Source: a phage
DNA: 40,778 nucleotides
Direction: 5' to 3' (one strand)
Sequence record: PZ179885.1
The position numbers and the translations under genes are program-made. Positions 3,309-39,653 of the stretch are shown one piece after another; the stretch's first letter is position 1, and the number at the start of each line of letters is the position of its first letter. The notes under the pieces are model-generated. The model did not search any database. It saw only the letters and a list, made by a program, of their open reading frames with translations, and had not been told where the DNA came from.

Positions 3309-3812
3309 ATGGAACGTAACGCTAACGCATACTATGAGCTGCTGGCTGCAACCGTTGAGGCATTTATCGAGCGTATTCAGTACTACCACCTGACTAAAGA
3401 TGATGACTACAGCGATGCGCTGCATGAGGCCGTAGACGGTCAGGTTCCGCACTATTACCACGAGATTTTTACGGTGATGGCTGCTGATGGTATAGACCAC
3501 GAGTTCGAAGACTCTGGGCTGATGCCTGAAACCAAGGACGTAACGCGTATCCTACAAGCTCGCATCTATGAGGCACTTTATAACGACGTGTCTAATAGCT
3601 TGGATGTAGTCTGGTTTGAGGATGAAGAGGCAGACGAAGAGGATGAATATTGGGTAGTTGACGCTAAAACAGGCGCAATAATTGTGCAAGCTGTAGCTCT
3701 TGAGGTCGCTACTGCATGTGCCAAGCTCAACTATACGATAGGTCGCCACCTGAAGGTGGAAGACATCAATGATAACGTAGTGTTCGACCCTGCGGCTGAG
3801 GACTGCGAGTGA
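3309..3812 (+). CDS. 0.3: Ocr-like DNA-mimic anti-restriction protein (gene 0.3) with C-terminal extension
   Basis: Residues 1-115 align with T7 Ocr ([43 protein letters not shown] versus T7 [43 protein letters not shown]); acidic tail, then about 50 extra residues. Confidence 0.85.
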
Positions 3813-3958: not shown

Positions 3959-4483
3959 ATGAAACTGATAGGCAAGGGCGCGTTCACTAAGTGCTACCTG
4001 AAGGACTGCGGGAAGCGTGTAATTCTGGTATCTTCAGACCCAATCAAGGAGTGTATGGCGTGGGGATGGTTCCCTGAGTCTCCACTGTTCCCTGAAGTCA
4101 AAATGATTGAGGTAGGCACGTATGAGATGAACTACATGCCACCAACACGAGGTATCAAGGCGCATTTAGATGACGACCAGTGGCAACTCTATCAGGTGTT
4201 GCGAGACTGCTTCTCACGGTCCCCTGTATTCTCTAGACCTGCTGAACTGTATCACAAGTGGTACGAGATATTCCAAGCTGCACACGACAGGTCTGAGACT
4301 GAGACTGTGCGGGAAGGTCTGATGGATGTGCTGATGGCTCTGGACGCTTGCGCTAACTTCGGGTCTGATATTCAGTTTGAGATAAGCCCACGAAATGTAC
4401 GGGCTGTGAATGGTAAGCTGATACTGGTTGACTGTTTCTTCCTTGTGTCCAAGCTGCAAGAGGTGAGGTCATCAAGATGGTAA
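3959..4483 (+). CDS. 0.7: short gene 0.7-like protein kinase (kinase domain only)
   Basis: IGKGAFTKCY...KRVILV resembles T7 gp0.7 LGNGHFSAAY...NRVIKV, and NGKLILVDCFF resembles T7 NGDVPYITDPVSF; 174 aa against roughly 359 aa in T7. Confidence 0.5.
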   Translation: MKLIGKGAFTKCYLKDCGKRVILVSSDPIKECMAWGWFPESPLFPEVKMIEVGTYEMNYMPPTRGIKAHLDDDQWQLYQVLRDCFSRSPVFSRPAELYHKWYEIFQAAHDRSETETVREGLMDVLMALDACANFGSDIQFEISPRNVRAVNGKLILVDCFFLVSKLQEVRSSRW

Positions 4484-8117: not shown

Positions 8118-8348
8118 ATGTCAATGAAACTTGTAGCACACAACAGGACATACAACGATGGGTCGGGACGTTGCCATGTAGAGCTGACTTATAAGGATTT
8201 AGTCATTATCCGAGACAGATTACAAGCGGGTGTGACTGGGTGGATTCAACCTAACGAGTACAACCTTATAGCCTCGATTGATGAAGTTCTTAACGCGTGG
8301 ATGCAAGACGAGCGCACTCAGTATCCATCATTCCCTATGATTAAATAA
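8118..8348 (+). CDS. hypothetical protein (76 aa)
   Basis: AGGAGG RBS; no motif recognised. Confidence 0.6.
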   Translation: MSMKLVAHNRTYNDGSGRCHVELTYKDLVIIRDRLQAGVTGWIQPNEYNLIASIDEVLNAWMQDERTQYPSFPMIK

Positions 8349-10746: not shown

Positions 10747-11217
10747 ATGAACGCACTTGAACAAGAGATTATCATTAAGTTGGTAGATAATAACGAAGGT
10801 CGCCCAGATGATTTGAATGGCTGCGGTATTTTCTGCCATAATGTCCCTTGCTACCTCTGTCCTGTAAATATCAATAAAAAGATAACCTTAGGTGAAATCC
10901 GAGCGATGGACATACGTAAGCCTAAACTGGAGAAACCAGAGGTAACTACTACAGACGACCAGCCTTACGCTAAGGCTATCGACGACGTACGCAAGCCGTC
11001 CCACTATCAGGTCTTTGACGGTGTGGAGTCCATTGAGATTATCGCTCGGTCCCTGACTGTCAGCGAGTTCCGTGGTTTCTGCATGGGTAACGTCCTGAAG
11101 TATCGACTCCGAGCTGGTAAGAAGTCCGAGCTGGCTACTATGGAGAAGGACCTAAACAAAGCAGCCTTCTATCAGGAGCTGTTCGACCTGCATAAAGGTA
11201 AGTGTTATGACGCGTGA
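10747..11217 (+). CDS. 1.7: gene 1.7-like nucleotide kinase
   Basis: 156 aa; EQEIIIKLVDNNEGRPDDLNGCGIFCHNVPCYLCP and KPSHYQ...GNVLKYRLRAGKKSELA match T7 gp1.7; lacks about 40 N-terminal residues relative to T7. Confidence 0.8.
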   Translation: MNALEQEIIIKLVDNNEGRPDDLNGCGIFCHNVPCYLCPVNINKKITLGEIRAMDIRKPKLEKPEVTTTDDQPYAKAIDDVRKPSHYQVFDGVESIEIIARSLTVSEFRGFCMGNVLKYRLRAGKKSELATMEKDLNKAAFYQELFDLHKGKCYDA

Positions 11218-11434
11218 AGAACTTAAAGCTGTAGGGGTGAAGCGTAGAGCGCTCAGTTTTTACCGAGCATACAAGGCGCTACGTAAGGGTATGTTAGCGT
11301 TCTCATTAGGACACAGTGAGTATTATGACTCTGACCTCCTACCGTTTGCTTATATGAAGACTCCTAGTATGATTATTAGGGTAGAGGAGTATGACCATTC
11401 TGACGACTGTGTAATGGTGAACCGATATGCTTAA
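11207..11434 (+). CDS. hypothetical protein (gene 1.8 position)
   Basis: 75 aa ORF beginning 11 nt before the gene 1.7 stop. Confidence 0.5.
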   Translation: MTREELKAVGVKRRALSFYRAYKALRKGMLAFSLGHSEYYDSDLLPFAYMKTPSMIIRVEEYDHSDDCVMVNRYA

Positions 11435-16133: not shown

Positions 16134-16170
16134 AGTGGCCTTTATGATTAGACTAAACGGAGGATTAACC

Positions 16171-16572
16171 ATGTTTGATTGCATTGAGTGGACCGGGTGC
16201 CGAGACCGTTTCGGATACGGTATGCGAAAGGTCAACGGGAAAGTCCGTAGACTACATCTGATAGCCTTCGAGGAGGCGAACGGTCCGATACCTGAAGGAA
16301 TGGTCGTGCGACATAAGTGTGACAACCCATCGTGTTACAACCCAGCACACTTAGAGCTGGGGACACGGGCTGACAACAATCGTGATAGAGACGTAAGAGG
16401 TCGAACCGCTAAGGGAGTGAGGCATGGGAGTTCTAGACTTACACCTGAAATAATACAAGAGGCCAAGGTGCTCTACGCAGGAGGTGGATGGACTCACCGC
16501 TCCCTAGGTGAGAAGTATGGAGTTGGACACCGCACGATAGCTAGAGCAATTGGAGGAGAAACATGGACTTAA
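16171..16572 (+). CDS. HNH homing endonuclease
   Basis: CIEWTGC...GYG...HLIAFEEANGPIPEGMVVRHKCDNPSCYNPAHLELGTRADNNRD; paralogue of 22218..22634. Confidence 0.85.
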   Translation: MFDCIEWTGCRDRFGYGMRKVNGKVRRLHLIAFEEANGPIPEGMVVRHKCDNPSCYNPAHLELGTRADNNRDRDVRGRTAKGVRHGSSRLTPEIIQEAKVLYAGGGWTHRSLGEKYGVGHRTIARAIGGETWT

Positions 16573-18740: not shown

Positions 18741-19067
18741 ATGGGAGGTGTAGCAACCTTACGATTCCATAAGATGCCTACTGGATGTATCGTCTGTGTA
18801 TCACATCGTCGAAACCATGATGGATACTTTCGGTACACGGTAGGCTCTGCCCGTAAGCCGGGACGCAAGGCGTTTATGTTCCACCGATGGGTGTGGGAGC
18901 AGAAGCGCGGACCTATACCAGATGGCTACGAGATAGACCATTTGTGCTTTAACCGTGGGTGCTGCAACATAGAGCACCTACAATGTATTCCAAAGCGTGA
19001 GCACGTCATCAAGACGAACCGTGAGCGCAAACTTATTAAGAAGGAGAAGACTAATGGCTATTACTAA
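18741..19067 (+). CDS. HNH endonuclease (gene 5.3 position)
   Basis: 108 aa; HRWVWEQKRGPIPDGYEIDHLCFNRGCCNIEHLQCIPKREH. Confidence 0.85.
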   Translation: MGGVATLRFHKMPTGCIVCVSHRRNHDGYFRYTVGSARKPGRKAFMFHRWVWEQKRGPIPDGYEIDHLCFNRGCCNIEHLQCIPKREHVIKTNRERKLIKKEKTNGYY

Positions 19068-19338: not shown

Positions 19339-19544
19339 GTGAATACTTACGGGTCCTAGCGGCCCTTAAGTCCTGCCCGAAGACCTTCCAGTCCAACTAT
19401 GTGCGCAACAACGCTGCACTTGTGGCTGAGGCTGCGAGTCGTGGACATCTGAGCTGCCTGTCTATGGACGGGCGTAACAACGGTGCGTGGGAGATTACCG
19501 CTGCTGGCACCAAGTTCCTGAACCAACACGGAGGCTGCCTGTGA
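19335..19544 (+). CDS. 5.7: gene 5.7 protein
   Basis: 69 aa; LKSCPKTFQSNYVRNNAALVAEAASRGHLSC...GAWEITAAGTKFL is nearly identical to T7 gp5.7. Confidence 0.92.
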   Translation: MSEYLRVLAALKSCPKTFQSNYVRNNAALVAEAASRGHLSCLSMDGRNNGAWEITAAGTKFLNQHGGCL

Positions 19545-19990
19545 AGATACCTGAAAGTCTGAAAGAGCTTGTCCTTGACATGGGTGAGTGCGAGAAGGAG
19601 CACCGCAAGTACGCTGAGTTCTACGCATCTTGGTCATACACCTTGACAGAGAAGGACGTTGAGTCATACACCGAGTCTCCCGCTGAGGCTTATGAGTGGC
19701 GTCCGTTCATCGGACTGACCATCGTAGCTAGCGGTATGTGGGATGACAGATACGGTTCAGAGGTAAACGACTGGGACGTGTGCCGCCAAGTTGAGAAGGA
19801 GACTGAGATGTCTTCAAACTTCTGGAACCTGATGTCACACCTCAACTCAGAGGATAATGACATGGCCCATGAGTTCGCCAACAAATGGCTGAAGCCTGAG
19901 GTGACTCTGGAACGTATTGAGGAGCCTAAAGTTCCCTTGCTGCCATATGCAGTCGCTATGGCTACAGGAGGTCTGGACGATGGGTGCTGA
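19541..19990 (+). CDS. acidic hypothetical protein at the gene 5.9 position (GTG start assumed)
   Basis: 150 aa from a GTG overlapping the 5.7 stop (GTGA); rich in Asp/Glu; no recognisable similarity to the 52 aa T7 gp5.9. Confidence 0.5.
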   Translation: MKIPESLKELVLDMGECEKEHRKYAEFYASWSYTLTEKDVESYTESPAEAYEWRPFIGLTIVASGMWDDRYGSEVNDWDVCRQVEKETEMSSNFWNLMSHLNSEDNDMAHEFANKWLKPEVTLERIEEPKVPLLPYAVAMATGGLDDGC

Positions 19991-21980: not shown

Positions 21981-22221
21981 ATCAATCAGTAAGGCATTCA
22001 AGAAAGTGGTGAAAAGTACGCTAGGGACCGTTGGTCTTGGCTCTGACGATGCGCCTAAGGTTGTTGAGGCTCAGACCCCAGCAGCACCAGTGGAAGTACC
22101 GAACGACAAAGTGGAGGATGTGGATACCGAAGTGGCTGCATCTGACGAGAAGAAAGTGAAGCGTTCTGGTAAGCGTAGCCTTCAGGTCTCTCGTACCTCT
22201 GGTGGCGGTATTTCTATTTGA
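21973..22221 (+). CDS. 7.3: gene 7.3 tail/virion protein (GTG start)
   Basis: MGKSISKAFKK... resembles T7 gp7.3 MGKKVKKAVKK...; the C-terminus SRTSGGGISI resembles T7 SSGGGINI; AAGGAG 7 nt upstream of the GTG. Confidence 0.8.
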   Translation: MGKSISKAFKKVVKSTLGTVGLGSDDAPKVVEAQTPAAPVEVPNDKVEDVDTEVAASDEKKVKRSGKRSLQVSRTSGGGISI

Positions 22222-22634
22222 CCGGGTGCATCGAGTGGAAGTGGGCCAAATCCTCAGCAGGATACGGGCAGAAGCGTATAGACGGTAAGTTAGTGTATAT
22301 GCACCGACTCGCTTACGCCGATGCGCATGGGCCAATACCAGACGGAATGCTCGTCCGTCATAAGTGTGATAATCCAGCGTGTTTCAACGTAAACCACTTA
22401 GAGTTAGGAACTCAGCGTGATAACATGCAGGACGCCTCAAAGCGTGGTCGCATCAATAAAACCAAAATGGCTAGAGGTGAAGACCAAGGGTTATCGGTTT
22501 TAACAGAAGACCTTGTTCGAGAAATCCGCAAGTCAACCGTAGGTTGTACAACACTGGCTCGTGAGCTAGGAGTTAGCAAGTCTACAGTTTTGCGTGTTCG
22601 CCAAGGTAAAACATGGAGGCACGTAGATGGCTGA
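22218..22634 (+). CDS. HNH homing endonuclease (gene 7.7 position; TTG start assumed)
   Basis: CIEWKWAKSSAGYG...HRLAYADAHGPIPDGMLVRHKCDNPACFNVNHLELGTQRDN; paralogue of 16171..16572. Confidence 0.8.
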   Translation: MTGCIEWKWAKSSAGYGQKRIDGKLVYMHRLAYADAHGPIPDGMLVRHKCDNPACFNVNHLELGTQRDNMQDASKRGRINKTKMARGEDQGLSVLTEDLVREIRKSTVGCTTLARELGVSKSTVLRVRQGKTWRHVDG

Positions 22635-25169: not shown

Positions 25170-25192
25170 GACTAAACTATCACTATAGGGAG
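25170..25192 (+). promoter_or_regulatory. phage RNAP promoter (phi10-like, strong late), +1 G at 25187
   Basis: ACTAAACTATCACTATAGGGAGA; full GGGAGA initiating sequence; upstream of the major capsid gene. Confidence 0.9.
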
Positions 25193-25297
25193 ACCAAGAG
25201 AAAGACTCAAGGTTTTCCCCTATTACTTCAGTCCATACGGATTGGGCGTACAGTAAGTAATAAACTTTATCTTTCAATTGAATAGGAGAATTATCAT

Positions 25298-26341: not shown

Positions 26342-26472
26342 GCACTTTTAGCCAACCTAACGTCGCTACAGTAGCGGCTGCACCTGAAGAGGAGACTCTA
26401 ACTCCTCAACAGAAAGCTGCGCGTACTCGTGCTGCGAACAGGGCCGCTAAACTGGCTGAGTCCAACAACTAA
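25298..26472 (+). CDS. 10B: minor capsid protein 10B, predicted -1 frameshift product
   Basis: G GTT TTC at 26320-26326, the same site I recall for T7; the -1 frame is open for about 49 codons and stops at 26470-26472 just before the terminator. Confidence 0.55.
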
Positions 26473-26476
26473 TTGA

Positions 26477-26516
26477 AACCCCTTGGGTGCCTTCGGGTGC
26501 TTGAGGGGTTTTTTGC
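26477..26516 (+). terminator. Tphi-like late terminator
   Basis: AACCCCTTGGGTGCCTTCGGGTGCTTGAGGGGTTTTTTGC; GC-rich hairpin plus T-run, resembling T7 Tphi. Confidence 0.85.
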
Positions 26517-26535: not shown

Positions 26536-27102
26536 ATGGCTCAATACATTCCACTGAATGCTAACGATGACTTAGACGCCATCAACGATATGTTAGCTGC
26601 TATCGGTGAACCAGCAGTCCTACAGCTTGACGAGGGGAACGCTGACGTCTCGAACGCTCAACGTATCCTGCATCGTGTCAATCGTCAGGTCCAAGCTAAA
26701 GGCTGGAACTTTAACATCAACGAAGCTGCTGTACTGACACCTGATGTCCAAGACAATAGGATTCGATTCCTGCCGTCATACCTTCGTGTAATGACCGCTG
26801 GGGCCACCAGCTACTACAGCAACATGGGTGGATACCTGTACGACCTGTCCACTCAGTCAACCACTTTCACCGACCCTATCACGGTAGAGCTTGTGGAGAT
26901 GAAGCCATTCTCCGAGATGCCTGTGGTCTTCAGGGACTACATCGTCACTAAAGCTAGCCGTGAGTTCAACGCTAAGTTCTTCGGTAGCCCAGAGTCAGAG
27001 CTATACCTTCGTGAGCAGGAAGCAGAACTCTATCAGCAGGTTATGGAGTACGAGATGGACACTGGTCGCTACAACATGATGTCTGACATCGGGAGGGACT
27101 AA
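26536..27102 (+). CDS. 11: tail tubular protein A (gene 11)
   Basis: 188 aa; similarity to T7 gp11 (GWNFNINE, VELVEMKPFSEMP, YIVTKASREFNAKFFG, EYEMD). Confidence 0.95.
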   Translation: MAQYIPLNANDDLDAINDMLAAIGEPAVLQLDEGNADVSNAQRILHRVNRQVQAKGWNFNINEAAVLTPDVQDNRIRFLPSYLRVMTAGATSYYSNMGGYLYDLSTQSTTFTDPITVELVEMKPFSEMPVVFRDYIVTKASREFNAKFFGSPESELYLREQEAELYQQVMEYEMDTGRYNMMSDIGRD

Positions 27103-27329
27103 TGGCTAGTCACAACCTGAAGATTCACCGCCAGCACTTTGGTCCGGTACAGCTAGGCCTAAAGACAGCAGAGCTGAGACTTAACGACCGGGACTTTAAG
27201 GTTGGCGACTGGCTTATCCTGAATGAGTGGGACAACGGGTATACTGGACAACAGGTAGCACGTAAGGTTGTCCACATTGCTAACGTTGGTGACATAGCTG
27301 AGGGATACGTCCTAATGAGTATGATTTAA
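27102..27329 (+). CDS. DUF3850-like (ASCH/PUA-like fold) protein inserted between genes 11 and 12
   Basis: 75 aa; HNLKIHRQHFGPVQLGLKTAELRLNDRDFKVGDWLILNEWD...YTGQ fits the DUF3850 pattern as I remember it; start overlaps the gene 11 stop (TAATG). Confidence 0.7.
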   Translation: MASHNLKIHRQHFGPVQLGLKTAELRLNDRDFKVGDWLILNEWDNGYTGQQVARKVVHIANVGDIAEGYVLMSMI

Positions 27330-27338
27330 GGAGGGCCT

Positions 27339-29696
27339 ATGCCACTAATTACTCAATCAATCAAGAACCTTAAAGGTGGCATTAGCCAGCAGCCAGACAT
27401 ACTGAGGTTCTCAGACCAAGGCGAGGAGCAAGTTAACTGCTGGTCATCCGAGAGTGATGGCCTCCAGAAGCGTCCACCTACAGTCTTCAAGCGACGTCTT
27501 AACATCGACGTTGGGAGCAACCCTAAGTTCCACCTGATTAACCGTGACGAGCATGAGCAGTATTACATCGTGTTCAATGGGTCCAACATTCAGGTAGTTG
27601 ACTTGAGCGGTAATCAATACTCAGTTTCCGGTGATGTAGACTACGTTAAGTCCTCCAACCCACGAGATGACATCCGTGTCGTTACCGTGGCAGACTATAC
27701 GTTCGTCGTTAACCGTAAGGTTGTCGTTAAAGGTGGGAGCGAGAAGGCACACTCTGGTTATAATCGTAAAGCTCGTGCTTTAATTAACCTGCGTGGTGGA
27801 CAGTATGGTCGCACCCTTAAGGTAGGAATCAACGGAGGAGTTAAGGTTGAGCATAAGTTGCCAGCAGGTAATGATGCCGAGAATGACCCTCCTAAGGTGG
27901 ATGCTCAGACCATCGGTGCAGCTCTGAGAGACCTTCTTGTTGCTGCTTACCCTACCTTCACGTTCGACCTTGGGTCTGGCTTCCTGTTAATCACTGCCCC
28001 TTCAGGGACTGACATTAACTCAGTGGAGACGGAGGATGGCTACGCTAACCAGCTAATAAGCCCAGTCCTAGACACTGTGCAGACAATCTCTAAACTACCT
28101 CTTGCCGCTCCTAATGGGTATATCATTAAGATTCAAGGTGAAACAAACAGTAGCGCCGATGAATACTACGTGATGTATGACTCCAACACTAAGACGTGGA
28201 AGGAGACAGTGGAGCCGGGAGTTGTCACTGGGTTCGACAACACCACAATGCCACATGCTCTGGTAAGACAGTCTGACGGCTCCTTTGAGTTCAAGACTCT
28301 GGATTGGTCCAAGCGTGGTGCTGGTAACGATGACACAAACCCTATGCCTAGCTTCGTGGATGCTGCGATTAACGATGTGTTCTTCTACAGGAACAGGCTA
28401 GGGTTCTTGTCGGGTGAGAACGTAATCATGAGCCGTTCAGCAAGCTACTTTGCGTTCTTCCCTAAGAGTGTGGCGACACTGAGTGATGATGATCCTATTG
28501 ACGTAGCTGTAAGTCACCCTCGAATCTCAATCCTTAAGTATGCCGTTCCGTTTAGCGAGCAGCTACTACTTTGGTCGGATGAGGTTCAGTTCGTGATGAC
28601 AAGCTCTGGGGTACTTACCTCGAAGTCTATCCAGCTTGATGTAGGCTCAGAGTTTGCCTTAGGCGATAATGCCCGACCGTTCGCTGTAGGACGCTCAGTC
28701 TTCTTCTCAGCTCCTCGTGGGTCATTCACCAGCATTAAGCGATACTTCGCTGTAGCAGATGTGTCTGACGTGAAGGATGCCGATGATACCACTGGCCACG
28801 TACTGTCCTACATCCCTAACGGGGTGTTTGATATTCAAGGTACAGGTACTGAGAACTACATCTGCGTCAACTCTACAGGTGCATACAACCGAATCTACAT
28901 CTACAAGTTCTTGTTTAAGGACGGAGTACAGCTTCAAGCCTCTTGGTCACACTGGGAGTTCCCTAAAGATGATAAGATTCTGGCGTCTGCTTCTATTGGC
29001 TCTACCATGTTCATCGTTCGTCAGCATCAAGGAGGGGTAGACATTGAGCACCTTAAGTTCATCAAGGAGGCAACTGACTTCCCGTCAGAGCCATATAGAC
29101 TACACATTGACTCCAAGGTGTCTATGGTAATTCCAATTGGCTCATATAATGCTGACACCTATAAGACTACGGTTGACATTGGTGCTGCTTATGGTGGCAA
29201 CGCTCCGTCTCCCGGTCGGTACTATCTGATTGACAGTCAGGGTGCTTATGTGGACCTTGGGGACTTGACCAGTATCTCTACTGTGATTACCCTCAACGGC
29301 GATTGGTCAGGACGTACAGTGTTCATCGGACGGCCCTATCTGATGTCCTACAAGTTCTCACGGTTCCTGATTAAGATTGAAGATGATAGGGGCACTCAGT
29401 CTGAAGACACTGGTCGTCTACAGCTTCGTCGGGCTTGGGTCAACTACAAGGACACTGGCGCTCTGAGACTCATTGTCAGAAACGGTGAGCGGGAGTTCGT
29501 GAACACCTTTAACGGGTACACCCTTGGTCAGCAAACCATCGGGACTACAAACATCGGTGACGGGCAGTATCGCTTCGCTATGAATGGTAACGCATTAACC
29601 ACGAGTCTAACCTTAGAGTCCGACTATCCTACCCCAGTGGCCATCGTTGGGTGCGGCTGGGAGGCGTCATACGCTAAGAAAGCTCGTTCCGTCTAA
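27339..29696 (+). CDS. 12: tail tubular protein B (gene 12)
   Basis: 785 aa; SQSIKNLKGGISQQPDILR, INRDEHEQYY, NDVFFYRNRLGFLSGEN, DDDPIDVAVS, LQLRRAWVNY and IVGCGWE match T7 gp12. Confidence 0.97.
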   Translation: MPLITQSIKNLKGGISQQPDILRFSDQGEEQVNCWSSESDGLQKRPPTVFKRRLNIDVGSNPKFHLINRDEHEQYYIVFNGSNIQVVDLSGNQYSVSGDVDYVKSSNPRDDIRVVTVADYTFVVNRKVVVKGGSEKAHSGYNRKARALINLRGGQYGRTLKVGINGGVKVEHKLPAGNDAENDPPKVDAQTIGAALRDLLVAAYPTFTFDLGSGFLLITAPSGTDINSVETEDGYANQLISPVLDTVQTISKLPLAAPNGYIIKIQGETNSSADEYYVMYDSNTKTWKETVEPGVVTGFDNTTMPHALVRQSDGSFEFKTLDWSKRGAGNDDTNPMPSFVDAAINDVFFYRNRLGFLSGENVIMSRSASYFAFFPKSVATLSDDDPIDVAVSHPRISILKYAVPFSEQLLLWSDEVQFVMTSSGVLTSKSIQLDVGSEFALGDNARPFAVGRSVFFSAPRGSFTSIKRYFAVADVSDVKDADDTTGHVLSYIPNGVFDIQGTGTENYICVNSTGAYNRIYIYKFLFKDGVQLQASWSHWEFPKDDKILASASIGSTMFIVRQHQGGVDIEHLKFIKEATDFPSEPYRLHIDSKVSMVIPIGSYNADTYKTTVDIGAAYGGNAPSPGRYYLIDSQGAYVDLGDLTSISTVITLNGDWSGRTVFIGRPYLMSYKFSRFLIKIEDDRGTQSEDTGRLQLRRAWVNYKDTGALRLIVRNGEREFVNTFNGYTLGQQTIGTTNIGDGQYRFAMNGNALTTSLTLESDYPTPVAIVGCGWEASYAKKARSV

Positions 29697-29720
29697 CTTA
29701 TTGAATGGCCTATAGATTTA

Positions 29721-29743
29721 CCTTAACTATCACTATAGGGACT
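29721..29743 (+). promoter_or_regulatory. phage RNAP promoter (phi13-like), +1 G at 29738
   Basis: CCTTAACTATCACTATAGGGACT. Confidence 0.8.
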
Positions 29744-29782
29744 ATAGGCCCTTTAAGTTATAATACTTTAATAGGAGACTTT

Positions 29783-30241
29783 ATGTATATTCGCAAGGCT
29801 ACGGAACCGGATGTCCACTACTTTCTGTGGCATCTTTCAGCAGATGATATTAATGAGTGCAAAGCAAACTACGGGTCAACCGTTGGTCTCTCTGAAAGAC
29901 TGCTTAAGCACCTATCTCCGTCATCTGTGGTTTTAACGAACGGTGTAGGCGAAGTGTTTGCCTATGGTGGAAACCAAGGGGATAACGTATGGTTCTTGAC
30001 TTCCGGTCTGGTCAACAAGCTGAGACCTAAAGAGAAGCGAGAGTTCATAAAGCGTATCTCTGAGTACAGGGACTTAATGTTAGACCAATACGGGACCATC
30101 TGGAACTACGTGTGGTCAGGCAATAAGTCTCACATTAAATTCTTGAAGTTGCTTGGCGCTAAATTCCATGATGATTGGACTATCAGCCCGGTAACTGGTG
30201 AGCGTTTTCAATTATTCACTATCTCTAAGGAGGACGTATGA
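29783..30241 (+). CDS. 13: gene 13-like internal virion/assembly protein
   Basis: 152 aa from the ATG with GGAG upstream; positional assignment between genes 12 and 14. Confidence 0.6.
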   Translation: MYIRKATEPDVHYFLWHLSADDINECKANYGSTVGLSERLLKHLSPSSVVLTNGVGEVFAYGGNQGDNVWFLTSGLVNKLRPKEKREFIKRISEYRDLMLDQYGTIWNYVWSGNKSHIKFLKLLGAKFHDDWTISPVTGERFQLFTISKEDV

Positions 30242-30639
30242 CGAAGGTCTGTTTAACTTGTGGTCTGGAGAAACCAATCACTGAGTTTCACAAACAGGCC
30301 GCCAAGAAAGACCCGAACAGGCGTAAGCCTCATTGTAGAAGCTGCTGGTCCAAGATACGTAAGGATAGAACCCCAGAGCACAACAGGCGATATAACCTGA
30401 AGAGATGCTATGGAATAACACCTGAGGAGTATGATAAAATGCTTCGTGAGCAAGGTGGGACATGTGCTATTTGTCATGGTACAGAGTCTGTAGGAAGACT
30501 AGCGGTAGACCATTGCCATTCAACTGGAAAGGTTAGAGGGCTGCTATGTACCAACTGCAATCAAGCTATAGGCAAGCTGAAGGATGACGCTCAGTTGCTT
30601 AGAAACGCTATCAACTATCTGGAGGTGAACCGTGTGTGA
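30238..30639 (+). CDS. endonuclease VII-like (His-Me finger) nuclease
   Basis: 133 aa; AICHGTES...LAVDHCHSTGKVRGLLCTNCNQAIG fits the T4 endonuclease VII family; overlaps neighbouring genes at both ends. Confidence 0.8.
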   Translation: MTKVCLTCGLEKPITEFHKQAAKKDPNRRKPHCRSCWSKIRKDRTPEHNRRYNLKRCYGITPEEYDKMLREQGGTCAICHGTESVGRLAVDHCHSTGKVRGLLCTNCNQAIGKLKDDAQLLRNAINYLEVNRV

Positions 30640-37469: not shown

Positions 37470-39653
37470 ATGTCCACGATTACACAATTCCCTTCAGGAA
37501 ACACTCAGTACAGGATTGAGTTCGACTACCTAGCCAGAACTTTTGTTGTTGTTACGCTGGTGAATAGCTCTAACCCTACCATGAACCGTGTACTGGAAGT
37601 TGGTCTAGATTACAGATTCCTTAATCCAACGATGATTGAGATGTTGGTTGACCAATCAGGTTTCGACATCGTTCGTATTCACCGTCAGACTGGAACTGAC
37701 TTAGTGGTAGACTTCAGGAATGGCTCAGTGTTGACAGCTAGTGACCTGACCAATGCAGAGCTTCAGGCTATCCATATTGCAGAAGAAGGTCGAGACCAAA
37801 CGGTTGACTTAGCGAAGGAATATGCCGATGCTGCTGGTAGCTCTGCTGGCAACGCTAAGGATAGCGAGGACGAAGCACGACGAATCGCTGCGAGTATCAA
37901 GGCAGCTGGTAAAATTGGCTATATTACCAGTCGCTCCTTCGAGAAAGGCTTCAACGTTACAAAATGGAACGAGGCCCTACTATGGGAAGAGGATGGTGAT
38001 TATTACCGCTGGGATGGTACGCTTCCAAAGAACGTTCCTGCTGGTTCAACTCCTGAATCATCTGGTGGTATTGGGCTGGGTGCATGGGTTAGTGTCGGTG
38101 ATGCGTCACTTAGAGCAAACCTGTCTGATAGTGATGGCGCTAAAAACATAGGCAGTGGGAAAAGAAATTTGCTTGACAGAAATAATGATATTAAGCACTC
38201 TGGTGACTTCTCTACCTTGCAAGCCGCGATAGATGCATCGTTAGCTAAGAACGACTTAATTGTTTCTCCGGGTGAGTACTCAGAGTCGATTACTATTGGA
38301 AACGCGCAGTTAAAAGGTGTTGGCGGGGCTGTAGTACTAAAACCACCAACAGGCTTTACAAACACTGTTCAGGTCAATTTATCTACACCTCATTGGCAAT
38401 TCCGCCATAGTGGTGGTTTTGCTATAGATGGTTCTGGGACAACCGGGGGCGTAGGCATTAGTTTTGACCCGTCAGACCAATATTCTGGCCGACATAATTT
38501 TAGTGATTTATACATCCACAACATCAACAAGGCCATTCAGAAGCCTTCCGGGAACATCGGTAATACATGGAGACATATTGGGGTATCTACGTGTGATTGG
38601 GGGTATTATGCGGTTAGTGGCTCAGAGATGCATTGTGGTGCCGATACACTCTACAATTTTCACTTCGACGGCATCTCCACCTATGCAGTCTACCTAAACG
38701 GCACTGTCGATAACGGTGGGGTGGGCGCATGGTGGCTTAAAGACTCCATTATTGAGTCCTCCGGCGGCGGCGGGATATACTTAAAAAACAAGCCTGGAGA
38801 CTGTCCTACATCCCCATGCGGGGTATCCAATGTATGGATGGAAGCGATCGCAACATCACCGGCTGTTAATGTAGACGGTGTGGCGCAGAAACCACGAGTT
38901 CTCAAGTTGGTAGACACCGCGATATTCTTTGCTGAGTATTCTTATCTCAACAACATCGAGCTGTCCAACTCAAACTTAGTAACTTATGGTTGCCGTTTTG
39001 ACAACGCTGATGGTAATCAGGATATTGTCGTGGATGCACAAAGTACCATTGTAGCCCATGACGTGTATTTAAACGGCAGTTCCGGAAAGGACGTTATTGT
39101 AGAGTCTATCGCATCGCAATCTGCAACGATAGCTACCACAAACTTATCTCTGCGAGGAAATTTAACTAGAGGGAGAGTGTTTAACACACCAACTGGTAAT
39201 AAATTGCAGGCTATTACGTTTGATTCCGGTAGCCACGAGTTTTCTGGTAGTGCTACAGTTAGCGGATCAATTGTATCTGACGGACTTCACGCCGCTACAT
39301 GTACCGAATTTTCATTCCCGGGGGCTGGTGTGTTCGAGATGGTAGCTTCAAGAACGACAATAACATCAGGAAGATGGTACGTGTGGGGTGTTAACTCACG
39401 CCTACAATCTGGCTTGGCGGACATTAGTATAACGTCTGGTATTACTATGGGTAGTGTTTACACAAAGCCCGGGGAGTGGATTAGCACTTTCGGTGTAGGC
39501 AAGGCATCTTCCACTGGCATTGTTTCGCTATACATTTCCACAGGAGGAGGTTCAGGAGCTACGGTCAGATTCAGTGACTTTTTCATCGCTGAGTTTACGA
39601 CGCAGGCTCAGGCTTTAGCTTTCGCCAATACCAGAATGGCACTGAGTAGTTAG
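37470..39653 (+). CDS. 17: tail fiber / tailspike (gene 17) with beta-helix C-terminal domain
   Basis: 727 aa; the first ~150 aa resemble the T7 gp17 N-terminal domain (FDYLARTFVVVTL, DYRF, LQAIHIAEEGRD); the remainder is Gly/Ser/Asn-rich with repetitive beta-strand character typical of right-handed beta-helix tailspikes. Confidence 0.93.
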   Translation: MSTITQFPSGNTQYRIEFDYLARTFVVVTLVNSSNPTMNRVLEVGLDYRFLNPTMIEMLVDQSGFDIVRIHRQTGTDLVVDFRNGSVLTASDLTNAELQAIHIAEEGRDQTVDLAKEYADAAGSSAGNAKDSEDEARRIAASIKAAGKIGYITSRSFEKGFNVTKWNEALLWEEDGDYYRWDGTLPKNVPAGSTPESSGGIGLGAWVSVGDASLRANLSDSDGAKNIGSGKRNLLDRNNDIKHSGDFSTLQAAIDASLAKNDLIVSPGEYSESITIGNAQLKGVGGAVVLKPPTGFTNTVQVNLSTPHWQFRHSGGFAIDGSGTTGGVGISFDPSDQYSGRHNFSDLYIHNINKAIQKPSGNIGNTWRHIGVSTCDWGYYAVSGSEMHCGADTLYNFHFDGISTYAVYLNGTVDNGGVGAWWLKDSIIESSGGGGIYLKNKPGDCPTSPCGVSNVWMEAIATSPAVNVDGVAQKPRVLKLVDTAIFFAEYSYLNNIELSNSNLVTYGCRFDNADGNQDIVVDAQSTIVAHDVYLNGSSGKDVIVESIASQSATIATTNLSLRGNLTRGRVFNTPTGNKLQAITFDSGSHEFSGSATVSGSIVSDGLHAATCTEFSFPGAGVFEMVASRTTITSGRWYVWGVNSRLQSGLADISITSGITMGSVYTKPGEWISTFGVGKASSTGIVSLYISTGGGSGATVRFSDFFIAEFTTQAQALAFANTRMALSS

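Follow-up and report, generated by a model that had tools for sequence, protein, structure and literature searches.

A stand-alone DUF3850 accessory gene between tail tubular genes 11 and 12 of a Kayfunavirus and its possible role in base or nucleotide recognition

A small gene lodged between two tail genes of a T7-like phage (sequence record PZ179885.1; the whole stretch of 40,778 nucleotides is referred to below as the window) is, by profile matches and a predicted structure, the gene of a stripped-down, stand-alone ASCH/PUA-like β-barrel protein of the DUF3850 family. From its sequence conservation it is almost certainly a genuine, translated accessory gene of Kayfunavirus that encodes a DUF3850 protein with no role in the virion or its assembly. 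The constellation of residues that it shares with its relatives points to a pocket for a base or a nucleotide, which is probably catalytic. The gene itself is already known, as more than 100 related phage genomes carry it in annotated form, and the copy in the window adds nothing new to this. Its GenBank history at this locus goes back to the deposition of EcoDS1, and many of the records label it as DUF3850 or as an RNA-binding protein.

The gene spans positions 27102 to 27329 on the plus strand, where an open reading frame running from an ATG to a TAA coincides with a Pfam match, and its product is a protein of 75 residues and 8.5 kDa consisting of DUF3850 alone. The list of open reading frames and the translation place it, with the peptides quoted in a preliminary description of this DNA, at exactly these coordinates. 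Its location between the tail tubular genes was correctly recognized there, given that the upstream neighbor (26536 to 27102, plus strand) matches the Pfam Tube profile (E=3.6e-46) and PHROG 446, as expected of gene 11 for tail tubular protein A, and the downstream neighbor (27339 to 29696, plus strand) matches Phage_nozzle (E=0, 1097.9 bits), as expected of gene 12 for tail tubular protein B, the nozzle. The upstream junction, GGGAGGGACTAATG (27091 to 27104, plus strand), combines a strong Shine-Dalgarno sequence, the TAA of gene 11 (27100-27102) and the overlapping ATG of the DUF3850 gene (27102-27104), so that in the resulting TAATG the last base of the one codon is the first of the other. 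The DUF3850 gene ends in a TAA at 27327-27329, and a 9-nt spacer, GGAGGGCCT (27330 to 27338, plus strand), which bears the GGAGG ribosome-binding site of gene 12, separates it from the gene 12 ATG at 27339. Hence the overlap reported for the start of the gene holds, and that reported for its stop does not. Together, the reading frame and the spacer make up a unit of 237 nt (27102-27338), which a genome either has in full or lacks altogether. A gp11-DUF3850 fusion produced by -1 frameshifting was considered, as the reading frame does lie in the -1 frame, but no slippery heptamer precedes the gene 11 stop. A direct repeat around gene 11 and the DUF3850 gene, hinted at by a Shine-Dalgarno string in a table published for SH4, was likewise discarded, because the gene 11 leader of the window differs from it.

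Profile searches assigned the 75-residue protein to DUF3850 (PF12961) with 70.7 bits against a gathering cut-off of 22.9 (E=1.2e-19), the match extending over positions 2-76 of the 77 in the profile. A weaker match was obtained with the Pfam ASCH profile (25.6 bits against a cut-off of 21.2, E=2.1e-5, positions 2-59 of 103). The protein also matched PHROG 986, the PHROG matches being labelled either as 'RNA-binding protein' or as unknown, whereas a search of NCBIfam with it yielded no match. An AlphaFold model of the protein (pLDDT 89.6) found its best Foldseek match in PDB 3IUW, the sole solved member of DUF3850, with a TM score of 0.85-0.86 and an rmsd of 1.7-1.8 Å along the entire chain, followed mostly by ASCH proteins such as YqfB (9KYF), PH0355, PF0470, EOLA1, TRIP4 and ZmASCH with probabilities of 0.85-1.0. 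Profile, PHROG 986 and predicted structure thus agree on the DUF3850/ASCH assignment that had been proposed from the letters of the sequence. The Foldseek matches and the Pfam ASCH match indicate that the protein possesses the PUA-like β-barrel core of the ASCH superfamily. It lacks the C-terminal helical part of a full ASCH domain, the strand formed by residues 47-61 running straight to the last strand at 69-74. Binding of modified nucleic acid, which the preliminary description brought up for ASCH/PUA-like domains, characterizes the PUA/ASCH clan at large and would be a putative trait in DUF3850. 3IUW is a structural genomics entry for the Enterococcus faecalis V583 protein NP_814290, termed 'activating signal cointegrator'; unlike the phage copy considered here, this protein comes from a bacterium, possibly from a prophage, and with the phage copy it shares about 40% identity as well as the KTxExRxNDR and GD motifs.

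The protein is further typified by the octapeptide G19-L-K21-T-A-E24-L-R26, an instance of the pattern G-x-K-x-x-[E/T/S]-x-R as defined in bioRxiv 10.64898/2026.02.27.708502, which is followed by the DUF3850-specific N28-D29-R30-D31. Fourteen residues, namely H4, K7, G19, K21, E24, R26, N28, D29, R30, G35, D36, E42, G49 and S73, each of which is at least 91% conserved among 152 divergent representatives of the family, are all retained. The same threshold and the same 152 representatives define eleven polar residues conserved across the family, and the protein retains 11 of the 11. Its pI of 6.9 compares with a median of 6.4 for stand-alone members of the family, so that none of this suggests a basic character for such proteins.

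The window phage belongs to Kayfunavirus as a T7 relative of the K1F/EcoDS1 kind. Proteins of 75 residues that are 95-99% identical to the one studied here occur in 132 phage records, and those at least 60% identical in 169. Annotations of these orthologs range from 'unknown product' (EcoDS1 AS9_0040) through 'RNA-binding protein' (ST31) to 'DUF3850 domain-containing protein' (FFK3 and EFA-1). The position between genes 11 and 12, the TAATG start and the length are common to all 15 of the ortholog loci inspected, and the sole feature distinguishing the window copy from the Kayfunavirus orthologs is Asn61, which is Asp in almost all others. The survey of related phages that had been suggested found the unit in EcoDS1-like genomes and not in K1F-like ones: it measures exactly 237 nt in 13-15 of the 15 carriers and 0 nt in five K1F-type genomes. 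The junction GGGAGGGACTAATG is common to these 15 carriers and five non-carriers, with single-base variants in two of the former and one of the latter, and alignment revealed that the very signal which starts the DUF3850 gene in the window starts gene 12 in K1F. K1F, the type phage of the genus, encodes a gp11 100% identical to that of the window and has no DUF3850 gene, and the gp12 proteins of K1F-type phages are 97-98% identical to that of the window. Besides K1F, the gene is absent from Dev2, SH3, SH4 and T7; in T7 genes 11 and 12 are indeed adjacent, as had been stated, with nothing but a 23-nt spacer between them (24818/24842). Among the records listed, about 22 have the direct junction of genes 11 and 12.

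The missing gene leaves two different end-points, in that K1F-type genomes join gene 11 to gene 12 start-to-start and Dev2-type genomes stop-to-stop. These junctions require at least two events of loss or gain of the gene in Kayfunavirus. An 'inserted' gene is therefore an apt description relative to T7 and K1F, but not in the sense of a recent event, as the gene is long-resident and widely shared in Kayfunavirus. The exact presence or absence of the 237-nt unit further implies that the DUF3850 gene is dispensable and not structural. None of the 51 open reading frames of the window shares its presence pattern in tblastn searches of four carrier and five non-carrier genomes, which provides no co-varying partner. 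In the Hafnia phage yong1 an extra HNH endonuclease gene directly follows the DUF3850 gene, and three HNH genes and one endonuclease VII gene are found elsewhere in the window.

Comparison of 16 orthologs gave a median dN/dS of 0.11, indicative of purifying selection, and the dS of the DUF3850 gene tracks that of gp11. Its GC content, GC3 and codon adaptation resemble those of core genes and differ from those of homing-endonuclease genes. With respect to transcription, the nearest phage-RNAP promoter upstream is phi10 (25171 to 25193, plus strand), which is identical to the promoter annotated upstream of gene 10 in EcoDS1; a scan of the window detected no phage promoter between 25171 and the next one, phi13, at 29721. 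A hairpin resembling the Tphi terminator, with a T-run behind it, lies between genes 10 and 11 (26472 to 26515, plus strand), at a position homologous to that of the terminator annotated in EcoDS1 and T7, and transcripts reaching gene 11, the DUF3850 gene and gene 12 must therefore read through it. Read-through of Tphi would thus place the DUF3850 gene on late transcripts shared with genes 11 and 12, and translation of the DUF3850 gene would be coupled to that of gene 11 through the TAATG. The literature offered no virion or infected-cell proteome for any Kayfunavirus that carries the gene.

Beyond Kayfunavirus, the DUF3850 family is very large and enriched in phages; it has a solved structure and an invariant polar pocket, and comprises 15,181 clusters at 50% identity (E<=1e-3). 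The same domain, at 40-60% identity, constitutes small accessory genes such as orf91 of the P2 family, the 'RNA-binding protein' of Rtpvirus/Drexlerviridae and gp55 of Listeria phage LP-101. The identifiable neighbors in 68 viral loci outside Kayfunavirus belong to replication, recombination, methyltransferase and HNH genes and include GPA nickase, primase, helicase, NinG, SSB, Gam, Dam-type and N6/N4 methylases and HNH proteins; across these 68 loci there is no conserved partner gene, the association being a general one with DNA-metabolism modules, and none has homologs of the tail or other structural genes of the window. Among the loci compared, a position in a tail operon is restricted to the Kayfunavirus copy, in contrast to the early, replication or nin-type modules in which other phages keep their DUF3850 genes, and siphovirus, myovirus and prophage homologs sit in early or replication modules. 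Domain fusions were rejected as a clue to function: of 87 long homologs, eight contain DUF551 and single cases contain a MazG-like dATP/dGTP pyrophosphohydrolase or a LexA/MarR/Crp HTH, the rest having no recognizable partner, and the fusions are hence not diagnostic. YbcN, the 'DNA base-flipping protein' of the DLP12 prophage, was dismissed as a characterized DUF3850 relative as well, for it is NinB-like and scored an hhalign probability of 0.1% against the profile. A literature search found no published function for DUF3850, in line with the initial view of an accessory gene of unknown role.

Pointers to a biochemical activity come from larger ASCH proteins, among which an ac4C amidohydrolase, a tRNA ac4C eraser and an ssRNA nuclease are known. 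YqfB, TthASCH, EOLA1, the ASCH domain of TRIP4 and ZmASCH share the β-barrel core with DUF3850, which is about 25-70 residues shorter. In hhalign comparisons the octapeptide of the window protein aligns residue for residue with G19-R-K21-T-I-T24-I-R26 of YqfB, such that E24 falls on the catalytic T24 of YqfB and both K21 and E24 are present; the FKxGD strand aligns with YqfB and other ASCH proteins in the same manner. In ASCH proteins of the GxKxxExR type, the Lys and Glu form an essential catalytic dyad, and 19 of 19 ASCH proteins assayed, all of them larger than DUF3850, removed ac4C from tRNA, according to an unreviewed preprint (bioRxiv 10.64898/2026.02.27.708502). DUF3850 lacks the helical segment that carries the general acid E74 of YqfB and has invariant additions of its own in the form of N-D-R, H4, K7 and E42. 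With that C-terminal segment missing, catalysis by DUF3850 is not assured. The retention of the octapeptide together with all eleven conserved polar residues argues for the base- or nucleotide-binding pocket, which would be lined by K21, E24 and R26 of the octapeptide and the DUF3850-specific H4, K7, N28, D29, R30, D36 and E42. Its ligand may be a modified pyrimidine or purine, presented as a free nucleoside or nucleotide or as a flipped-out base of an RNA or DNA molecule, and the chemistry would be a hydrolysis of the ASCH type, for which the deacylation of N4-acyl-cytidine is a precedent. We tentatively propose that the protein acts as a small cytoplasmic enzyme recognizing bases or nucleotides, a mechanism that we regard as possible rather than probable. 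Its benefit would be conditional on the host or its defenses, and close relatives could dispense with the gene for that reason. Placement in a late structural operon is unusual for a gene of nucleic-acid metabolism and counts against such an enzyme. Taken as a whole, identity and mechanism together, this best explanation falls not far short of being probable.

A plausible though doubtful alternative is that the protein is a non-catalytic reader or binder that attaches to RNA or DNA, with a modified base as a possible site, and serves as a regulator or shield that, for example, alters how the late 11-12 message is translated or how stable it is, or masks a feature of the nucleic acid. The 'RNA-binding protein' label of PHROG 986 and RefSeq reflects the binding role of the PUA/ASCH clan, the ASCH domain of TRIP4 has been crystallized with dsDNA (9KYL), and the loss of the helical lid with the equivalent of YqfB E74 would suit a binder. 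Fusions of a ParB-CTPase with DUF3850, which are encoded beside ParA, imply that the domain can take the place of a DNA-binding HTH, and suggest, against the enzyme model, that it can be a mere nucleic-acid-binding module (PMC12704722). However, the protein is neutral (pI 6.9), and eleven conserved polar residues in 75, including a Lys/Glu dyad that is catalytic elsewhere, exceed the needs of a generic binder; moreover, the many genomic contexts of the family make a function tied to the 11-12 mRNA improbable. An involvement in the tail, either as a chaperone of gp11 and gp12 or as a packaged protein that is ejected and acts early like IPI* of T4, could be read from the position in the tail operon, the coupling to gp11 and the late co-transcription with structural genes. 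It is very unlikely, in that K1F-type phages, whose gp11 is identical and whose gp12 is 97-98% identical, have no such gene, the virion proteomes of Dev2, SH3 and SH4, available for non-carrier phages only, describe complete virions devoid of the protein, and homologs of siphoviruses, myoviruses and prophages lie in early or replication modules. A functionless selfish passenger or a mis-called reading frame is hardly credible. The insertion of an HNH gene in yong1 would mark the 11/12 junction as a hot-spot, and the HNH and endonuclease VII genes of the window fit such traffic, but the DUF3850 gene has a dN/dS of 0.11, keeps every family-invariant residue, resembles core genes and not HNH genes in composition, and encodes no nuclease or mobility domain detectable with Pfam or PHROG.

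The patchy occurrence of an optional gene among near-identical genomes is typical of anti-defense genes, and the protein might accordingly sequester or destroy a modified mononucleotide or base used as an immune alarm, or act as a decoy for PUA-type sensors of modification. One such alarm would be m6dAMP, released from the host chromosome as the phage degrades it. This nucleotide is sensed by Metis and by the homologous PUA-Cal-HAD system, whose sensor has been described as a domain of the PUA/ASCH clan, and Metis protects against T7, which is devoid of a DUF3850 gene (bioRxiv 10.1101/2025.11.05.686725, 10.64898/2026.01.15.699771). YqfB illustrates that an ASCH pocket can accept a free modified nucleoside, and in other phages DUF3850 has Dam-type and N6/N4 methyltransferases in its vicinity. 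We consider this unlikely all the same, because late expression is poorly suited to blocking an alarm in mid-infection, the published counter to PUA-Cal-HAD consists of DNA-mimic proteins, and no defense protein that might be mimicked was significantly matched among the PADLOC models, the only match being to PDC-M07B (E=0.0087, 14 bits). A more specific conjecture, that this mini-ASCH either counters an alarm such as m6dAMP or methylated dCMP by binding or hydrolyzing it, or erases a tRNA modification such as ac4C34 of elongator tRNA-Met and thereby evades tRNA-directed defense or retunes late translation, is, for both versions jointly, a decidedly long shot.

If true, the counter-defense or tRNA-eraser reading would give a first function to DUF3850, a family that occurs widely in phages and exceeds 15,000 sequence clusters. 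Kayfunavirus offers a natural experiment in this regard, with near-isogenic phages that differ by the exact 237-nt unit in an easily engineered T7-type backbone. Such a presence/absence pair could let a function be assigned to the whole DUF3850 family.

The 75-residue ORF at 27102-27329 on the forward strand (MASHNLKIHRQHFGPVQLGLKTAELRLNDRDFKVGDWLILNEWDNGYTGQQVARKVVHIANVGDIAEGYVLMSMI) lies between the genes for tail tubular protein A (gene 11, 26536-27102; Pfam Tube, E=3.6e-46) and the nozzle or tubular protein B (gene 12, 27339-29696; Pfam Phage_nozzle, 1098 bits). This bears out the position given in the preliminary description, as well as its statement that genes 11 and 12 are adjacent in T7, where they are separated by a mere 23 nt without a DUF3850 gene. 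The ATG of the ORF overlaps the TAA of gene 11 by one base (…GGGAGGGAC TAATG G…) and is served by a correctly spaced ribosome-binding site, GGGAGGG. The overlap that had been proposed for both start and stop thus holds at the start and fails at the stop, where GGAGGGCCT separates the TAA from the ATG of gene 12.

Pfam DUF3850 covers the whole protein with 70.7 bits (cut-off 22.9, E=1.2e-19); the ASCH profile of Pfam scores above threshold as well, yet only across the N-terminal 59 of its 103 profile positions, and PHROG 986 ("RNA-binding protein") is matched with E=9e-35. The sole solved relative recovered by sequence search was 3IUW, from Enterococcus faecalis, a structural-genomics protein of 83 residues. 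A confident AlphaFold2 model based on 22 homologues (pLDDT 89.6) displays five strands and one helix, and its top Foldseek match is again 3IUW (TM 0.85, rmsd 1.7–1.8 Å), with E. coli YqfB (an ac4C amidohydrolase), PH0355, PF0470, EOLA1, TRIP4-ASCH and ZmASCH lower in the list. Profile and fold therefore agree with the original DUF3850/ASCH assignment. In a profile alignment YqfB has identical residues at G19, K21, T22 and R26 of the ORF protein, its catalytic T24 is aligned with E24, and its FKTGD with FKVGD; on this basis the protein possesses the ASCH octapeptide GxKxxExR. It lacks the helical segment in which Glu74 of YqfB is situated. The product of the ORF is a minimal ASCH barrel in which the motif is intact and a cluster of polar residues is invariant.

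HMMER, run in full over 1.84 billion cluster representatives, gave 15,181 proteins with E<=1e-3, of which 3,536 have E<=1e-10. Among 152 divergent representatives, a sample from which Kayfunavirus orthologues were excluded, H4, K7, K21, E24, R26, N28, D29, R30, D36 and E42 are conserved in 96–100%, G19, G35 and G49 in 95–98% and S73 in 91%, and all 14 are retained by the window protein. The presence of 11 near-invariant polar residues in 75 positions suggests a defined pocket and not a nucleic-acid surface of the generic kind, in agreement with the neutral pI of the window protein (6.9; median 6.4 among stand-alone family members). The window copy has an asparagine at position 61 (HIANVG; codon at 27282-27284), a site at which aspartate is found in 74% of the wider family and, within Kayfunavirus, in 14 of the 15 other orthologues compared. 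The extensions of 87 longer homologues are mostly unrecognisable sequence, with DUF551 in 8 and a fused MazG-like dATP/dGTP pyrophosphohydrolase in one.

The surrounding 1.3-kb region shows 94–98% identity with many genomes of Kayfunavirus, among them TM1, ST31, EcoDS1, PDP21P1 and numerous Salmonella Typhi phages. A survey of related phages for the insertion by tblastn recovered the protein in 169 phage records at >=60% identity, 132 of them at 95–99%. The gene is labelled "unknown product" in EcoDS1, again between genes 11 and 12, "RNA-binding protein" in RefSeq, "DUF3850 domain-containing protein" in several GenBank records and a hypothetical protein in the paper on Hafnia phage Ca/yong1 (PMC8861465), so public databases and literature already contain it. 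The only paper found in our literature search to discuss the domain at any length describes prophage-enriched ParB-CTPase-DUF3850 fusions and terms it uncharacterised (PMC12704722). The ORF is an accessory gene of a known family, previously deposited and annotated, and an ordinary genomic finding.

K1F, the type phage of the genus, lacks the gene despite a gp11 100% identical to that of the window, and its gene 12 ATG occupies the same TAATG that starts the ORF here. The extra segment, comprising the ORF and a 9-nt spacer, is exactly 237 nt in 15 carriers and 0 nt in 5 K1F-type genomes, and the direct 11/12 junction is seen in at least 22 records among the matches listed. As K1F-type gp11 (>=80% identity) occurs in ~218 records and the DUF3850 gene in 169, roughly a fifth are without it. 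The remainder of carrier and non-carrier genomes are mosaics of 95–100% identical proteins, and no other window ORF was found to co-vary with the gene between the two sets. Carrier/non-carrier divergence is raised only within ~60 nt of the junction (0.136 vs ~0.05), with a single fixed difference, and diversity near the junction is 0.007 in non-carriers vs 0.04 in carriers. This junction-limited divergence and low non-carrier diversity fit a K1F-type deletion that arose once, relatively recently, and was spread by recombination. Dev2, as well as SH3 and SH4, lacks the gene with a different junction, in which the gene 11 TAA is followed by TAGGAGGTGAT-ATG; CtuP_B1, a distantly related carrier, has the same spacer downstream of its DUF3850 gene, and the Dev2-type end-points fall inside the two CTAAT stop regions. 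Since the junctions differ, there were at least two independent events, which, judged from their end-points, were start-to-start in K1F and stop-to-stop in Dev2, both keeping the gene 12 translation signals. The imperfect repeats GGAGGGACTAATG and GGAGGGCCTATG at the ends of the 237-nt unit could have mediated such deletions. In Hafnia phage yong1 (MK610268) a 146-aa HNH-type endonuclease gene (2047-2487) is added at the junction of the DUF3850 gene and gene 12, marking the 11/12 junction as an insertion hot-spot.

Sequence evolution and composition speak for a functional gene. Across 16 orthologues the median pairwise dN/dS is 0.11 for the ORF vs 0.025 for gp11. Its dS rises along with that of gp11 (GA2A, 0.83 vs 0.71; CtuP_B1, 1.42 vs 0.96), a parallel that indicates long co-residence. 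Its GC (0.49) and GC3 (0.55), together with its codon adaptation measured against the core genes of the phage itself (0.63), are similar to those of gp12 and gp14 and higher than those of the three HNH genes of the window (0.50–0.60). The phage-polymerase promoter is present in 11 copies in the window, with none between phi10 (25171) and phi13 (29721). Given this gap, a Tphi-like hairpin at 26472-26515 and the analogy of T7, the ORF is probably transcribed late, by read-through, on the transcripts that carry genes 11 and 12.

Several other forward-strand ORFs of the window were noted. The 133-aa endonuclease VII gene (gene 13.5, 30238-30639; Pfam Endonuclease_7, E=8e-28) between genes 13 and 14 is a further optional insert, absent from K1F and found at >90% identity in 2 of 9 compared Kayfunavirus genomes, with a match of only 42% in a third. 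Three HNH homing-endonuclease-type ORFs (16135-16572, 18741-19067, 22218-22634), situated on either side of the DNA polymerase gene and ahead of the portal gene, have a codon adaptation below that of core genes; their counterparts in related genomes are only 30–50% identical or absent. At the position of gene 17 (tail fibre/spike) lies an ORF of 727 aa (37470-39653) for which none of the nine genomes has a match spanning half or more of the length; a different receptor-binding module is probable here, which would imply a different host or capsule specificity. The 174-aa early-region ORF (3959-4483; PHROG 11084), which follows directly on the ocr-like gene (3309-3812), occurs in only one of the nine and is thus a further candidate for an accessory or host-takeover function. 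Small ORFs at 8118-8348, 11207-11434 and 19487-19990 occur in one, two and three of them respectively, the last (167 aa, PHROG 4382) being found, the window aside, only in genomes without the DUF3850 gene. The mechanical gene 13 ORF (29705-30241, 178 aa) has its first codon ahead of the phi13 promoter (29721-29743); by comparison with the 151-aa EcoDS1 counterpart the true start is probably near 29786, leaving the first ~27 codons likely untranslated. Gene 19 (588-aa ORF, 1-1767, the large-terminase position) stands at the beginning of the window, which opens at or within it, with the early region next; hence the assembly is a complete genome of ~40 kb in circularly permuted form and not in natural linear order.

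The comparisons show a selected, dispensable gene, unnecessary for assembly; K1F, Dev2, SH3 and SH4 speak against any part in virion structure or assembly, which is highly improbable. Elsewhere, the homologue is followed by a DNA helicase gene in Rtpvirus IME253, follows the replication nickase gene A as orf91 in P2-like phage L-413C, and lies amid small early genes in Listeria phage LP-101, three genes upstream of an RNA ligase gene. At 68 IMG/VR loci, all outside Kayfunavirus, recurrent neighbours are GPA nickase, primase, helicase, NinG, SSB, Gam, Dam-type and N6/N4 methyltransferases and HNH endonucleases, and homologues of structural genes of the window are absent from all 68. Only in Kayfunavirus, therefore, is the gene placed in the tail operon, and the family overall travels with nucleic-acid metabolism genes.

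The pocket would bind a base, nucleoside or nucleotide, which would probably be hydrolysed. One of the two closest precedents is the conversion of ac4C to cytidine by YqfB; the other is a 2026 preprint in which all 19 ASCH proteins assayed, from both the GKTR and the GKER type and with no DUF3850 member among them, are reported to strip ac4C from tRNA, the octapeptide Lys and Glu being essential (bioRxiv 10.64898/2026.02.27.708502). Because of the make-up of that set and the missing lid region, catalysis by the DUF3850 protein is proposed tentatively, as a possibility, and a non-catalytic role as reader or binder is rather doubtful. Counter-defence is attractive but unsupported, and we consider it improbable: Metis and PUA-Cal-HAD sense m6dAMP from phage-driven chromosome degradation (bioRxiv 10.1101/2025.11.05.686725, 10.64898/2026.01.15.699771), the PUA-Cal-HAD sensor is described in its study as a PUA/ASCH-clan domain, and Metis defends against T7, a phage without the gene; however, DUF3850 is common among temperate phages and no PADLOC model resembles the protein. 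Whichever activity the DUF3850 domain has, Kayfunavirus offers a clean natural knockout/knock-in system for giving it a function.
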